A DNA stretch of 15,915 nt, from contig JAZDJQ010000015.1 of NCBI GenBank assembly GCA_043803765.1, positions 1-15,915 on the forward strand, read 5' to 3'. The translations under genes were made by a program, and so were the position numbers. Of the stretch, positions 2,270 to 12,874 are shown piece by piece. This stretch comes from Candidatus Iainarchaeum sp. (GTDB taxonomy: Archaea; Iainarchaeota; Iainarchaeia; Iainarchaeales; VGJJ01). The notes below the pieces were generated by a model, which was not told the origin of the DNA, ran no database searches, and was given only the letters and a program-made list of their open reading frames with translations. How positions within the stretch are numbered: the stretch's first letter is position 1; each line of letters opens with the position of its first letter.

Positions 2270-2800
2270 TTAATTGTTTTCTCCTCGCGGGAATCGGAAG
2301 TATCGGGCGGTACTCCATGATTGGCTTTTTTGGTTGAGCCGATGATTGAGAATCGTATACACGCGAGTGAATTGCTGGAAGAATATTCGCCATTTTTGTT
2401 CGTCCATTTTTCTTGAAAGTGTTGCTAATTCCTTTTCTATTTTTTTCTTTTTCTTTCCGGTTGTCATCCGTTGAACGGTCCGATAGGCGAGTTTTCGTAA
2501 TTCTGGATCTGTTATTCCTGCCTTATCCAATGCATATCGTGCGGCGAGCCGTCCGTTCATTCGTTGGGCTGTCTGGAAATACTTTATTTGGGCATCAATC
2601 CTTTTGGCAATGTAGGTTTCCGGATCCACAACACGGATTCCTGTTCGGAGAACCATTCGGTTGAACGGTTCCGCGACCTTTTTTCCCGCCGTTTTTCGGA
2701 CGGCACGCTGAAGAACCGCCCATGTTCTTTCACGAGTCAAGGGGTTTTCCACTTTTTTCTTCCAGTCGTGGAGTCTTGCGGATTTCCATTTCCTTGCCAT
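2270..2800 (-). CDS. Hypothetical highly basic (Lys/Arg-rich) protein
   Basis: 176-aa ORF with ATG about 30 nt from a TATA-like element. It converges on the previous gene across a T-tract. No recognisable motif. Confidence 0.65.
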   Translation of the reverse strand: MARKWKSARLHDWKKKVENPLTRERTWAVLQRAVRKTAGKKVAEPFNRMVLRTGIRVVDPETYIAKRIDAQIKYFQTAQRMNGRLAARYALDKAGITDPELRKLAYRTVQRMTTGKKKKKIEKELATLSRKMDEQKWRIFFQQFTRVYTILNHRLNQKSQSWSTARYFRFPRGENN

Positions 2801-2830
2801 AGGACAATCTTGTATTCCTATTCGGGGAGG

Positions 2831-2839
2831 ATATATATA
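2831..2839. promoter_or_regulatory. TATA box, probably shared by rnpB (+) and the 2270-2800 gene (-)
   Basis: ATATATATA lies about 23 nt before the RNase P P1 helix and about 30 nt before the divergent ATG at 2800. Confidence 0.65.
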
Positions 2840-2861
2840 GGCTCTCTTCCGATTGAAAGTT

Positions 2862-3146
2862 GGAGTCGCCGGTGGTCCGCTGACGGTGGCCTGGAGAGTT
2901 TGGGGTTTTTCCCTGGGCTTTTTCCAAAGGCTGTTGAGGAAAGTCGGTCCACTCAGTCAAACCCGGAAAGGCTGCGGTAGTGGCTGCGGGGGCACAGAAA
3001 CGGTCTGCATTCGCGTGCAGGATGATTCGTTGAGAGGACGTTGCGCGAAATGCATTGAAACGGGTTCCCGCTCGGGGAGTGCAAGCCATTTATGGCGCTT
3101 AGGCGAATGCGGATAGAACAGAAGACCGCTTATGGCCGGCGACTCT
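2862..3146 (+). ncRNA. rnpB: Archaeal RNase P RNA (about 285 nt, reduced type M-like fold)
   Basis: P1 2863-2873/3135-3145. P2 2875-2880/3109-3114. GAGGAAAGTCGGTC (2936-2949) pairs with GACCGCT (3124-3130) in AACAGAAGACCGCTTA, with the conserved bulged U of P4. P5 2950-2954/3077-3081. ACAGAAA and TGAAAC flank P12, and GCTTAG-GCGAATG precedes P2'. GC-rich island with an upstream TATA box and a downstream T-tract. Confidence 0.95.
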
Positions 3147-3168
3147 TATTTTTTATTTTATTTTTTTT
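3146..3168 (+). terminator. Oligo-T archaeal terminator of rnpB, overlapping the 3' end of the convergent C39 gene
   Basis: Run of T-tracts immediately after P1'. Confidence 0.6.
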
Positions 3169-3659
3169 GTTGCGGTTTTCTTCTTGTGCATATGGCGGGG
3201 TTGAATAACAACCATGTTTCGTAGTAGTAAATCCGATTTTTTTCTCAAATAATCTCCCCTGAAATCGAACCAGTTTCTTTTGAATGTAGTAAGACGCATT
3301 GCCCGGATTTGTCCCCATTCAGGATCCATGAGGTAAATATTTTCGGAGTTCACCCATACTACTACGGAGTAGTGTCCGTCATCCCCATTCCACCAATCAA
3401 CAATAACCGGTATTTCTTTTTCTCTCACCCAATACCGGATATCTCGTAGAGTTGCATTTTCTTCTACGGATGCATTCAATCCTAGTTCTCGGGCAGTTTC
3501 GGATAATTTGTGGATGTTGGTTCCCGTTCTTTTGGTGGCCCCCATTCGGTGCGCAAGGTCTTTTTCTGTTTTTCGTATTCCGAAATAATAGAGAACGGCT
3601 TTTAGGGAGGCGGGACCGCAGAATGCAGTATCTTGTCGAAACGGGCGGATGTTGAGCAT
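3153..3659 (-). CDS. Standalone C39-family cysteine peptidase
   Basis: Q-x4-CG(P)ASL catalytic Cys motif, GHYSVV catalytic His, and LMDP. TATA-like TTTTAAG on the minus strand at 3684-3690. Confidence 0.88.
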   Translation of the reverse strand: MLNIRPFRQDTAFCGPASLKAVLYYFGIRKTEKDLAHRMGATKRTGTNIHKLSETARELGLNASVEENATLRDIRYWVREKEIPVIVDWWNGDDGHYSVVVWVNSENIYLMDPEWGQIRAMRLTTFKRNWFDFRGDYLRKKSDLLLRNMVVIQPRHMHKKKTATKKIK

Positions 3660-5608: not shown

Positions 5609-8305
5609 ATGGCCGAAAAGAAGATTCTTCGGGAACGATTTTCGCGGGAATGGGAGAAGCATTACAAGGTGGATGCGCTCACGAGTAGAGGATTTCAGAG
5701 AAAGCAATGTAGTAATTGCAGTCGTTTTTTTTGGACAATTGATTCAAATAGAACGGCGTGTGCGGATTCGGAATGTACCGGATATGCGTTTATTGGGAAG
5801 AAGACCAAAAATTATTCATACGTTGAGACGTGGAAAAAAATAAGCGAGTATTTTGCAAAGAATAATCATACGGAGATAAAGCGTTTTCCTGTTGTTTCCC
5901 GTTGGCGGGATGATTTGTATTTTACGAATGCGAGTATTATTGACTTTCAACCCTACGTGGTGATGGGGGAAGTAGCCCCTCCTGCTAATCCCTTGATTGT
6001 TCCGCAGATGTGTTTGCGTTTCAATGATGTTGGAAATGTAGGAGTAACGGGACGGCATAATACCAGTTTTGTCATGTTTGGTCAGCATGCTTTTAACACG
6101 GAGAAAACGGGGTTGTTTTATTGGAAAAATGAGGCATTGGAGCACGATTATAATTATTTGACTCAAGTGATTGGAGTAAAACCCGAGGATTTGACTTTTC
6201 AAGAGGAAGTGTGGGCCGGCGGAGGAACATTTGGTCCTAGTATTGAGTATGCTGCTAATGGAGCAGAATTGGGAAATTGCGTATTCATGCAGTTTGAGGA
6301 ATTGGATAATGGTGAAAGTCGTGAGTTGAAAACCAAAGTAATTGATATGGGGGCAGGATTGGAACGATTGGCATGGTACACAACGGGAACACCTACGAGT
6401 TATGATACCGTGTATGGAAACGTCATTCATAATCTCAAACGAAATACCGGCGTTGATTTGGATGAGGAATTGTTTTTGCAGTATGCCAGGATTAGCGGTG
6501 TTATTGATATGGAAAGCGGAAACGTCAAACAGAAAAGAGAAGAGATTGCTAAAAAATTAGGAATGGATGAGAAAGAATTATTTTCTCGCATTGCCAGTTT
6601 GCAGGCATTGTACGCTATTACGGACCATCTCAAAACGATTTTGTATACGTGCACCGATGGTCAGCTTCCAAGTAATGGGGGTGGTGGATATAATCTGCGC
6701 TTGTTATTACGCCGTGTATTTGGTTTCAATTCAGAGTTTGCATTTAATTTGAATTATGATTCTATTCTCCAAGACCATGTGAAAGAGTTGAAGGGATTTG
6801 ATGATTCATTGCAAGAAGGACTTCCTACTGCAATCGAAGTAGTGAAGGAAGAGCAGAAAAAATTCAATATGTTGCAGGAAACGGGTAAGAAAAAAATGCA
6901 AATCATTGTGGAACGGATGAGAAAAGAAAACAAACCCATTGGGAAAAAGGACCTTATTACATTGTATGAGTCGCACGGCATTCCCTATGAGATGGCCGTG
7001 GACGCGGGGAAAAAAGAAGGAGTTGCGGTAGAGGAAGTGTTTGATTTCTATGAACAGATTGGAGTAAAGAATGAGAAGAAGAAAGAGAAAAAAACGGGAT
7101 TAGCCATGGAAGTGGAATCGTTTCCTGAAACGGAAACAATGTATTATGACAAATTATATGAAAATAAATTTCAGGCAAAAGTAGTGGGAAAAATTCAATC
7201 ATTTATTGCGTTGGATAAAACGCTTTTTTACCCGGAGGGCGGCGGGCAGAGTTTTGACACAGGAACAGTGAATAATATTGGAGTTAAAAGTGTTCAAAAA
7301 ATACAAAATCGTATCTTACATGAAGTAGAGAATCCAAACGTGTTTGAAATAGGACAAACGGTTGATGGTTTTATTTCACGTGAGAGGAGGGCCAATTTGA
7401 TGCACAATCATACGTGCACTCATTTAGTGAATGCGATGTGCCGCAAGGTACTTGGACAACACATTTGGCAGGCGGGTGCACAAAAGAGTCCTGAAAAAGC
7501 CCATTTGGATGTAACGCATTACAAGAAAATACATTCTTCCGAGATAACCAAAATCGAAGAATTAGTAGAAGCGCATATTCAGAAAAAAATTTCAGTGAAA
7601 AAATTCACGGCTTCCCGTACGGAAGCCGAACAAAAATATGGTTTTCGCATCTATCAAGGCGGATTTGTCCCGGGCAAAGAGTTGCGTCTCGTTGAGATTG
7701 AAGGGGTGGATATCCAGGCATGCGGGGGAACGCATATTAATAATACGGCAGAGATTGGTTTCTTCAAGGTGATAAAAGTGGAAAGCATACAGGATGGAAT
7801 TGAACGCATCACGTTTGCGACGGGAAAACCTGCATTGAAATGGGTGCAGGAACGTGAGGAAAAATTGCACCGTCTTACGAAAATTCTTAATACGACGGAG
7901 CAGGATTTGGAAAAGACGGCACAGAACATGATGGACGAGTATAAGCAGGCGCGTAAAAAAGTGGAGCAATTGCAGGAATATTATTTGAGGGGAATTGCCA
8001 AAGAATTGAAGGGAAAAGCAAAGGGGAGTAAGATTATTGAAAAGTTGGATGAGATGGAACCCGATGCCTTGTTGAAATTAGGGCAAATTATTGTGAATGA
8101 GAATCCTATGCTTTCCGTTGTATTAGTATCTAATTCGGCTAAAATGATAGTAGTGATGAGCGGGAGCGGGAGTACATTCAATGCGAAGAATGCTATTCAG
8201 CATATTCTTTCATTCGTGAAAGGAAGTGGTGGTGGAAGTGAGAAGCTTGGTCAGGCAAAATTGATTAGTTTGGATGGAATCGATGCGGCATTGATGAAAC
8301 TATAG
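5609..8305 (+). CDS. alaS: Alanine--tRNA ligase, archaeal type
   Basis: N-terminal CxxC..FW..C....C extension, VGVTGRH..F.M, WAGGG..GP..E, IDMG.GLER, DHLKT, GGGYNLR, FYPEGGGQ, editing motifs HTCTH and CGGTH, and C-terminal GSGGG. Confidence 0.98.
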   Translation: MAEKKILRERFSREWEKHYKVDALTSRGFQRKQCSNCSRFFWTIDSNRTACADSECTGYAFIGKKTKNYSYVETWKKISEYFAKNNHTEIKRFPVVSRWRDDLYFTNASIIDFQPYVVMGEVAPPANPLIVPQMCLRFNDVGNVGVTGRHNTSFVMFGQHAFNTEKTGLFYWKNEALEHDYNYLTQVIGVKPEDLTFQEEVWAGGGTFGPSIEYAANGAELGNCVFMQFEELDNGESRELKTKVIDMGAGLERLAWYTTGTPTSYDTVYGNVIHNLKRNTGVDLDEELFLQYARISGVIDMESGNVKQKREEIAKKLGMDEKELFSRIASLQALYAITDHLKTILYTCTDGQLPSNGGGGYNLRLLLRRVFGFNSEFAFNLNYDSILQDHVKELKGFDDSLQEGLPTAIEVVKEEQKKFNMLQETGKKKMQIIVERMRKENKPIGKKDLITLYESHGIPYEMAVDAGKKEGVAVEEVFDFYEQIGVKNEKKKEKKTGLAMEVESFPETETMYYDKLYENKFQAKVVGKIQSFIALDKTLFYPEGGGQSFDTGTVNNIGVKSVQKIQNRILHEVENPNVFEIGQTVDGFISRERRANLMHNHTCTHLVNAMCRKVLGQHIWQAGAQKSPEKAHLDVTHYKKIHSSEITKIEELVEAHIQKKISVKKFTASRTEAEQKYGFRIYQGGFVPGKELRLVEIEGVDIQACGGTHINNTAEIGFFKVIKVESIQDGIERITFATGKPALKWVQEREEKLHRLTKILNTTEQDLEKTAQNMMDEYKQARKKVEQLQEYYLRGIAKELKGKAKGSKIIEKLDEMEPDALLKLGQIIVNENPMLSVVLVSNSAKMIVVMSGSGSTFNAKNAIQHILSFVKGSGGGSEKLGQAKLISLDGIDAALMKL

Positions 8306-8385: not shown

Positions 8386-8757
8386 TTATTTTGATGGTAT
8401 CCATTCAACGTTTGGTATTTCTTTGAAAGCTTTATCTCCTGTGAGAAATTTGCATTTTTCCGTTTTGGCTATTTGGTATCCAATGCAGTCCACATACGAC
8501 ATATTTTTCATCTTGTTTCGAAAACGAAATTTGACTGCTTCTTTTATTACATGATCAGAAATTTCAATCGTTTTATCAAGAAAGGAGGAATAATATTTTT
8601 CAGCTATTTCCTCATTTTGTTCAAGCAGTGCTGAATAATAAAGTTCCATCAAATTGAGTTTTGTTAAAATTATTTCGTGTTTTTCAAAAAATGGAATAAA
8701 TCGGGAATTGTCCTTCAAGTATTCAATAATAGCAAACGTATCAGCAAAATATTTCAT
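8386..8757 (-). CDS. vapC: PIN-domain toxin (VapC family)
   Basis: FADTFAIIE, LMELYY, MSYVDCIGY, FLTGDKAF carry the PIN acidic residues. ATG 8757 overlaps the antitoxin stop (TAATG). Confidence 0.92.
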   Translation of the reverse strand: MKYFADTFAIIEYLKDNSRFIPFFEKHEIILTKLNLMELYYSALLEQNEEIAEKYYSSFLDKTIEISDHVIKEAVKFRFRNKMKNMSYVDCIGYQIAKTEKCKFLTGDKAFKEIPNVEWIPSK

Positions 8758-8972
8758 TAATCCCACCCTTTTCTTATTTCATTCATAATATCTTGTGTGG
8801 AACGTTTCGATTTGAAAGTTCCGCGTAATTCCTTGATGTCGTTCACTCTTTGTACCGTAATAATTAGTTTGTCCTTTGGATTGATTTTCTGCTTTTTGAC
8901 TAATTTACTGTCTAAAATTACGCTAATGGAATTACCCCATTGTTTTGCCTCGGCAGCAATAGTATCACTCAT
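8757..8972 (-). CDS. AbrB/MazE/SpoVT-type antitoxin
   Basis: KQWGNSISVIL...INPKD.LII.V AbrB motif, 71 aa, translationally coupled upstream of the PIN gene. Confidence 0.88.
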   Translation of the reverse strand: MSDTIAAEAKQWGNSISVILDSKLVKKQKINPKDKLIITVQRVNDIKELRGTFKSKRSTQDIMNEIRKGWD

Positions 8973-12493: not shown

Positions 12494-12874
12494 ATGAAAT
12501 ATGCTCACTCTCCTGAATGGACAAATGTCACGCATCGTTTGATTGATGAATTATCATTCACTCATATTCCAAAAGAAAGAATTTCCGTCTTCACATCGCA
12601 GGGTTCGAATTCACGCAGGGTGATTGCGCGTATTCATACCATGCCTAAAATTATCCAATTAGGAGCGAATCAGCCCCCTTTTTATGCCATTGAATTGATT
12701 TCGGAGAAGTTTGACCGGCAGAATGATGAGGAGAAAGTAAAAACGATTATTCACGAATTGTTGCACGTTCCTCATTCATTTAATGGGGGTTTTAGGGGGC
12801 ATAAGCAGTATGTGAATCATTCGACCGTGAATGCGATTTATACCAAGTGGAAAGCCCAGTCTCGATTAGGGTAA
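12494..12874 (+). CDS. Putative HExxH metallopeptidase (small archaeal / phage-metallopeptidase-like family)
   Basis: S.GS.SRR.IARIH, YAIELISEKFD, IIHELLHVP..F.GG.R.H. Confidence 0.8.
   Translation: MKYAHSPEWTNVTHRLIDELSFTHIPKERISVFTSQGSNSRRVIARIHTMPKIIQLGANQPPFYAIELISEKFDRQNDEEKVKTIIHELLHVPHSFNGGFRGHKQYVNHSTVNAIYTKWKAQSRLG

Follow-up and report, generated by a model that had tools for sequence, protein, structure and literature searches.

To our knowledge, type M ribonuclease P (RNase P) RNAs have been documented so far only in Methanococcales and Archaeoglobaceae. A locus at positions 2862-3146 (+) of a 15,915-nucleotide (nt) stretch of DNA from Candidatus Iainarchaeum sp. (the whole stretch is called the window here) raises the question of whether a DPANN archaeon encodes an RNA of the same architecture, as proposed in an initial annotation. 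The Rfam family RF00373 (RNaseP_arch), whose gathering score is 84 bits, matched 2864-3144 (+) with 103.9 bits (E 1.4e-28) over model positions 1-288, that is, from end to end. This was the only RF00373 match in the host genome (1.02 Mb in 19 contigs, 93.5% complete). The bases just outside the match were complementary, with differing letters, in several relatives from the same genus, lengthening P1 by two pairs; therefore, the annotated gene bounds of 2862-3146 are supported over 2864-3144. We conclude that 2862-3146 (+) is very probably a single, functional gene for the catalytic RNA of a ribonucleoprotein RNase P of Iainarchaeota (DPANN), with a type M layout.

The fold was examined by comparative analysis. 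A structure written from the sequence and the Rfam alignment was counted on 14 RNase P RNAs of the genus, aligned with MAFFT. The RNAs of G002 and G005 were first extended in the 5' direction, as Infernal had begun both inside an enlarged P3. Standard pairs were found in 96.4% of the 922 cells, and 26 of the 66 pairs were changed on both sides, a count reached by none of 500 shuffles. When the 3' partners were slid by 1-3 columns as a control, pairing was 35-45%. Pairs changed on both sides were present in P7 (4/4), P9 (4/5), P10/11 (4/8), P12 (7/11) and P15 (2/4), and a fold with P8 or with P6/P16/P17 was not supported by the covariation. All helices named in the initial annotation, which had folded the RNA by hand, were recovered at the same positions or within one base of them. 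Its register for P7 also fitted better than that of Rfam, which leaves a G-G mismatch. Its helix details needed revision in that the conserved part of P7 is only 4 base pairs (bp) and P5 is 5 bp, with G3077 in P5.

The 5' strand of P1 (2862-2874) pairs with 3133-3146, with G3135 bulged, and 96.1% of its cells were paired; its first pair covaried (CG in 8 RNAs, AU in 4, UG in 1 and one cell unpaired). P2 (2875-2880 with 3109-3114) was 100% paired, with both-side changes in 2/6 pairs. P3 spans 2884-2936 (53 nt), and its base, CGGU with GUUG, was 100% paired in the genus; the Rfam alignment placed 45 nt here against 7 in the consensus. P3 was about 28 nt in most members of the genus and longer still than in the window in G002 (L026:1502-1807 (-)). 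The 5' strand of P4 (2941-2949) forms the pseudoknot with 3124-3131 and was 100% paired, with one covarying pair (CG in 10, UA in 4). U2944 stays unpaired because this strand has one base more than its 3' partner, and a bulged uridine in P4 is also present in other RNase P RNAs. P5 (2950-2954 with 3077-3081) was likewise 100% paired, and one of its pairs covaried (GC in 8, UA in 6). After the unpaired J5/7 (AGUCAAA, 2955-2961), P7 is formed by 2962-2966 with 3072-3076. The conserved pairs are 2962-2965 with 3073-3076, and the fifth, G2966-U3072, is present in the window sequence only.

The P9 hairpin, GCUGC-GGUA-GUGGC, lies at 2971-2984, and its loop in relatives is mostly GGAA or GGGA. P10/11 (2986-2993 with 3064-3071, 8 bp) was 99.1% paired. 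It is followed by the conserved J11/12 region ACAGAAACGGU (2994-3004), which agrees with the Rfam consensus ACAGAAACGA, then by P12 (3006-3054, 49 nt) and by the joining region UUGAAACGG (3055-3063), which agrees with the consensus UGAAACG. A conserved CAA linker (3082-3084) stands between the 3' strand of P5 and P15, and P15 is a closed hairpin, GCCA-UUUA-UGGC, of 4 bp with a 4-nt loop (3085-3096), in which GCCA/UGGC was replaced, for example, by GUCU/AGAC. The J15/2 region GCUUAGGCGAAU (3097-3108) also agrees with the Rfam consensus, and J2/4, AGAACAGAA (3115-3123), was placed from the sequence and the Rfam alignment. All the conserved joining regions, GAGGAAAGUC, ACAGAAACG, UGAAACG, GCUUAG..GAAUG and ACAGAAG..GCUUA, align to the RF00373 consensus. 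Within P12, a local hairpin of CUGCA with UGCAG (3005-3009 with 3016-3020) was considered and ruled out by the RNA of G003, which turns G3007-C3053 into A-U; this preserves P12 in its long-range form and disrupts the local hairpin.

Type M RNAs "do not have L15, P16, P17 and P6", and loss of P8 is described as their key difference from type A (PMC3579882). In the window RNA, P7 is separated from the single hairpin 2971-2984, which Rfam aligns to P9, only by AAAG (2967-2970); the P8 columns of Rfam are deleted, and the linker is 3-5 nt in 14/14 RNAs of the genus. A linker of 4 nt between P7 and P9 means that there is no P8. The interior of P15 is 4 nt against 37 Rfam consensus positions, and the hairpin stands directly between CAA and GCUUAG. 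Since P15 is closed as a 12-nt hairpin, there is no room for L15, P16 and P17, and the P6 pseudoknot, which needs a strand beyond P17, cannot form. We also considered a P6-like pseudoknot between J5/7 and the P15 loop. It was dropped: complementarity reached at most 2-3 nt in 14/14 genus RNAs, which was not above that of shuffled loops, so that J5/7 is left without a P6 partner. J2/4 is 9 nt and therefore has no insert at the P19 position. The absence of P6, P8, L15/P16/P17 and P19 suggested by the initial annotation was thus borne out. Compared through the Rfam consensus and published descriptions, these results support a type M architecture for the window RNA.

Could the RNA still be of the ordinary type A, with P8 and the P15-P17/P6 elements overlooked or misfolded? 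Rfam holds types A and M in one family, and the RF00373 match alone does not tell the type. However, type A RNAs, for example those of Pyrococcus and Methanothermobacter, carry P8 as well as a P6 pseudoknot closed by the P15-L15-P16-P17 arm, and none of these is found in the window RNA, in which the 4 nt between P7 and P9 and the 12 nt of the whole P15 leave no room for them. The flanking helices covary in register, and no P6-like pairing was seen. A deletion introduced in assembly is unlikely, as the layout is equal in 14 genomes of the genus and in the two RNA-library contigs described below. An overlooked type A RNA is almost certainly the wrong explanation. What the type M-like window RNA shares with type A is the family, the catalytic core, the conserved regions and the P10/11-P12 specificity domain. 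Type T, also named type P (Thermoproteaceae, RF02357), is likewise a natural reduction of the archaeal RNA. Most of P10-P12 is missing from it, whereas in the window RNA both P10/11 (8 bp) and P12 (49 nt) are present and covarying. In type T the catalytic domain remains type A-like and the specificity domain is largely gone; the window RNA shows the reverse, with the specificity domain retained and a loss at the periphery of the catalytic domain.

The double kink-turn (K-turn) that binds two copies of L7Ae is typical of P12 in type M RNAs and was described for Methanococcales. In P12 of the window RNA, G3024 and A3025 stand opposite G3037 and A3038, and these bases were invariant in 14/14 genus RNAs. 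The distal stem of 2 bp varied among relatives (UC/GA, GC/GC, GU/AC or AC/GU, by eye). We infer that this G/A core next to a covarying stem may be one K-turn. Previous reports showed that L7Ae binds K-turns in P12 of the studied type M enzymes and that POP5-RPP30 sits on the catalytic domain (PMC9371926, PMC5499556). By analogy, L7Ae would contact the window RNA at the P12 K-turn.

We then asked which lineage carries this RNA. The alanyl-tRNA synthetase (AlaRS) encoded in the window at 5609-8305 (898 amino acids, aa) has relatives at 73-79% identity that include a Candidatus Iainarchaeum archaeon; the others are uncultured archaea and one archaeon labelled Thaumarchaeota. Relatives at 42-53% identity were from Iainarchaeum, Micrarchaeota and Anstonellaceae. 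Candidatus Iainarchaeum belongs to Candidatus Iainarchaeota, kingdom Nanobdellati (DPANN), in the NCBI taxonomy. Placed in Iainarchaeota by these AlaRS relatives, the host lies outside Methanococcales and Archaeoglobales, as the initial annotation had inferred from the neighbouring genes. The host thus does not share the taxonomic origin of the type M name (Methanococcales/Archaeoglobaceae), which is not a structural criterion.

All five RNase P proteins occur in Diapherotrites (PMC4919917). A Pfam search of the host genome detected Pop5 (47.4 bits), Rpp21 (50.3 bits), Rpp29 (79.9 bits) and L7Ae (80.3 bits, with an L30e protein as second match). The only Pfam match for Rpp30 was a 651-aa open reading frame (ORF) with 15.5 bits, which was set aside as an unrelated protein. 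At the Pop5 locus, the gene order was L15e, a second ORF (L063:1836-2423 (-), on contig C4 of G000, outside the window; 175 aa from its likely start), Pop5, proteasome alpha and SBDS. Counterparts of this ORF were found in 16/16 other genomes of the genus at 39-63% identity, and Pop5 adjoined it in 17/17 loci. Used as a query, it gave no counterpart in 24 other genera. It had no Pfam or NCBIfam match in its 195-aa reading and no match in the PDB by phmmer, and a homologue search returned only 3 proteins. A profile of 19 sequences had only two matches in the PDB, both of them Rpp30 (E 0.04-0.05). Its AlphaFold model (pLDDT 89) was compared by Foldseek, and the seven best matches were all Rpp30 chains (TM 0.70-0.75, E from 3e-5), with the Rpp30 chain of the M. 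jannaschii holoenzyme among the Rpp30 matches. Pfam detected Rpp30 at E up to 0.001 in 17/24 other genera of the order and, in the genus of the window, gave only weak matches to unrelated ORFs of about 580 aa. The modelled fold and the gene order thus identify the 175-aa ORF as a predicted Rpp30 that is too diverged for Pfam and NCBIfam. A predicted complex of Pop5 with this protein scored 0.80, with one control at 0.66, and is of no use for or against binding. With this assignment, all five subunits (Pop5, Rpp30, Rpp21, Rpp29 and L7Ae) are encoded in the genome, and Rpp30 has diverged fast in the genus. Annotation pipelines would report the Rpp30 of this genus as missing.

Since Rpp30 in this genus has diverged beyond detection by Pfam, we considered whether the gene might be a decaying, non-functional remnant, with tRNA 5' processing done by another enzyme or not needed, as in Nanoarchaeum equitans. 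DPANN genomes are reduced. As described in PMC3655853, RNase P is missing from N. equitans, and the RNase P RNA of the Nst1 nanoarchaeon is much shortened. In the window RNA, however, every helix is kept by compensatory changes, and no conserved core region is disrupted. All five protein genes are found in the genome, and the Rpp30-like ORF is kept in all of the other genomes of the genus, always adjacent to Pop5. The alternative enzyme HARP was reported to be absent from the DPANN genomes examined in PMC6380272, and a PIN_5/HARP domain had no Pfam match in the host genome. A near-identical RNA was also abundant in a metatranscriptome assembly: a 169-nt groundwater contig with a word depth of 629 covers 2926-3076 with 2 differences. 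A second contig, of 201 nt and from a soil RNA library, covers 2935-3105 with 14 differences. Among these are paired changes at 2987+3070 and 2989+3068 in P10/11, and the changes at 2991 and 2966 each turn a G-U pair into A-U. The loose end of the soil contig resembles the short P3 of other genus members. In both assemblies the flanks and both ends of the gene were uncovered, and two further RNA-library runs gave no contig over the gene; nothing was concluded from either. We regard a decaying remnant as most improbable and the window RNA as very probably functional. The Nst1 RNA resembles it in being reduced and in coming from a DPANN archaeon. It differs in being "considerably shorter" and not foldable into a typical structure (PMC3655853), whereas the window RNA has a complete type M fold supported by covariation.

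We next examined how widely this architecture occurs. RF00373 matches were found in 31/41 close relatives and in 105/121 genomes sampled across Iainarchaeota. For the analysis of P15, 108 Iainarchaeota RNAs were taken, and in 99 the P15 module could be located by sequence landmarks. P15 was a hairpin of 9-20 nt with at least 3 bp in 92/99 of these landmark-resolved RNAs. The other seven comprised two with fewer than 3 bp, two landmark errors (impossibly short) and three long strings with a hairpin at one end. Rfam alignments of 9 order-level relatives gave 2-6 nt against 35-39 model positions in P15 in 8/9, and the ninth (L002) had a 13-nt P15 hairpin by landmarks. In Micrarchaeota, from which one unpublished genome was excluded, RF00373 matched in 39/41 sampled genomes reached through AlaRS loci. 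The P15-hairpin rule held in 26/31 RNAs automatically and in 4 more by eye; the P15 of L166 was longer. As judged from these sequences, the minimal P15 is lineage-wide and old: it extends through the whole of the sampled Iainarchaeota and Micrarchaeota and is not an event of the genome or genus of the window.

The distribution of P8 was different. The segment before J11/12 was folded under constraints in 102 RNAs (99 from Iainarchaeota and 3 from Micrarchaeota), and by this approximate measure it held one hairpin in 52, two in 41, three in 7 and none in 2. A one-hairpin member was present in 18/24 families and a member with at least two hairpins in 13/24, with both kinds in 7/24; in the family of the window, 15/15 RNAs had one hairpin. 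In these folds, P8 loss is patchy and recurs among families of Iainarchaeota. Type M variants with P8 are described for Archaeoglobus profundus, A. veneficus and Ferroglobus placidus (PMC3579882). In these variants, as across the Iainarchaeota families, loss of P8 is separable from closure of P15; they differ from the window RNA in that its whole genus is without P8, the P8-bearing forms being found in other families. The Micrarchaeota RNAs (L164-L168, L169-L194) were mostly 190-250 nt, with a closed P15 and a single hairpin with a UUAAG-type loop. Rfam aligned the single hairpin to P8, not to P9, in 4/5 Micrarchaeota RNAs. The alignments suggest that the path of reduction in Micrarchaeota differs from that in Iainarchaeota.

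Other elements varied among Iainarchaeota families as well. The RNA of G023 (L014:1501-1687 (-)) is 187 nt, scores 111 bits over the full Rfam model and has no P8; its P12 is 2 nt against 45 in the model. In several other families the J11/12 and UGAAACG motifs were only 14-22 nt apart. In those short-P12 families the usual L7Ae site in P12 seems, from the alignments, to be gone. At the P19 position, between the 3' strands of P2 and P4, many Iainarchaeota RNAs have inserts that range from tens to more than 100 nt, for example L016:1681-1763, L022 (about 75 nt), and L123 and L133 (137 nt). The distance from the J15/2 motif to the ACAGAAG motif was 15 in the window and up to 137 in other families, and the genus of the window is without an insert. 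One or two extra hairpins between P15 and GCUUAG were found in L148 (G090) and L162 (G127), family f17, and nowhere else in the sample. In G039, about 1.07 kb separates the RNase P RNA gene (L009:1501-1746 (-)) from the 3' end of the 23S rRNA gene (L009:2815-3246 (-)), which lies upstream of it on the same strand.

The origin of the layout was also considered. Lateral swapping has been proposed for the presence or absence of P8 within Archaeoglobaceae (PMC3579882), and the window RNA might likewise owe its layout to a type M euryarchaeon, through horizontal transfer of the gene. Our comparison with type M was made by description, not by sequence, which leaves some room for this explanation. 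However, the closed P15 is present in nearly all sampled Iainarchaeota and Micrarchaeota, so a transfer must predate both phyla. Micrarchaeota also appear to keep a P8-aligned hairpin and not P9, which argues for separate reduction paths, and the Rfam alignments show ordinary divergence and nothing foreign-looking. We consider such a transfer very unlikely. Type A is the commonest archaeal form and resembles the bacterial RNA (PMC3579882), and we infer that it is the ancestral state. If type A is taken as ancestral, the DPANN reduction most likely came about separately from that of the euryarchaeal type M RNAs of Methanococcales and Archaeoglobaceae. The independent reduction suggested by the initial annotation therefore remains the most economical reading, with the qualification that the reduction did not take place in this genome or genus, as the minimal P15 is lineage-wide. 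On balance, we lean slightly towards a closed-P15, type M-like RNA as the ground state of at least two DPANN phyla, with further shrinkage along separate paths. These paths may include repeated loss of P8 in Iainarchaeota, loss of the P9-aligned hairpin in Micrarchaeota, near-deletion of P12 in some families and inserts at the P19 position. If true, the RNAs would form a natural series in which a ribozyme is progressively minimised, with all five subunits kept in the one genome checked, that of the window. No description of such a series was found in the literature searched.

Type M RNA needs its proteins to cleave in trans (PMC9371926, PMC5499556), and RPP21-RPP29 binds the specificity domain (PMC4919917). 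By analogy with type M enzymes, the window RNA would supply the active site through P4 and the joining regions, and P9-P12 would supply the surface that reads the tRNA elbow. It has no L15 to pair with the tRNA 3' RCCA, and P8 and P6, which are taken to brace the type A fold, are absent. Cleavage of pre-tRNA in trans would most likely depend on the five protein partners, with the division of labour presumably as in type M, that is, POP5-RPP30 on the catalytic domain and RPP21-RPP29 on the specificity domain. The 3' CCA was encoded in 0/28 tRNA genes found by ARAGORN in the host genome.

Several points weigh against this reading of the RNA as a functional, protein-dependent type M enzyme. The single-sequence minimum-free-energy fold (-115.1 kcal/mol, z -2.1) does not give the comparative fold; the two differ in the P2/P5/P7 region, and the energy fold was not used for the structure. 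The second, overlapping K-turn of the type M double K-turn was not recognised by eye in P12. The comparison with types M and A was made with the Rfam consensus and published descriptions, not with reference sequences. Rpp30 was assigned by fold and gene order, below the threshold of Pfam RNase_P_p30. The protein dependence is carried over from the enzymes of Methanococcales and would apply here by analogy. The RNA-library contigs come from close relatives and show neither ends nor strand, and DNA carry-over could account for them. Across the phylum, the landmarks could not place 9/108 Iainarchaeota RNAs, and the hairpin counts come from constrained energy folding and are approximate.

With these points considered, the window RNA is an expected housekeeping RNA with a known reduced architecture, in a lineage where this has apparently not been written up, and it is typical of its phylum. 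A literature search, with subscription journals outside its coverage, found no paper describing this RNase P RNA architecture for DPANN. Like the type M RNAs of Methanococcales and Archaeoglobaceae, the window RNA is without P8, L15, P16, P17 and P6 and keeps P1-P5, P7, P9, P10/11, P12 and a terminal P15. Its length (281-285 nt) is similar, and the same five protein partners are encoded. It differs in its Iainarchaeota host, its P3 of 53 nt and the single K-turn-like core that is evident, as against the published double K-turn. Type M RNAs are the standard model for proteins taking over the jobs of a catalytic RNA. If this architecture prevails in two large DPANN phyla, with P8, P9 or P12 lost in addition in some RNAs, many independent replicates of this RNA-to-protein shift would be available, and small natural RNAs would be gained for reconstitution and structure studies.

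Finally, we examined the setting of the gene in the window. The RNA sits in a 350-nt gap between minus-strand genes at 2270-2800 and 3153-3659. A TATA-like box, ATATATATA (2831-2839, (+)), has its centre about 27 nt upstream of position 2862, and an A/T-rich box occurs at about equal distance in most genus relatives; this box may be an archaeal promoter. T-runs of T6, T4 and T8 lie directly 3' of the gene (3149-3168, (+)), and a T-rich stretch follows the gene in most genus relatives. These runs are a likely archaeal terminator, judging from base composition and position. Three probably spurious ORFs of 87-138 codons overlap the RNA, at 2564-2980 (+), 2730-3089 (-) and 2853-3116 (+); if one of them were called as a gene, it could mask the RNase P RNA. 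With such ORFs overlapping the RNA and with Rpp30 escaping Pfam and NCBIfam, the RNase P machinery of these genomes would be understated by automated annotation. The adjoining gene at 3153-3659 (-) encodes a stand-alone C39-like peptidase. The window also encodes a PIN-domain protein at 8386-8766 (-) and a protein with a "putative phage metallopeptidase" domain at 12494-12874 (+). These three genes lie among housekeeping genes, namely those for AlaRS, LeuRS, pyrB and a tRNA U5-methyltransferase-like protein.

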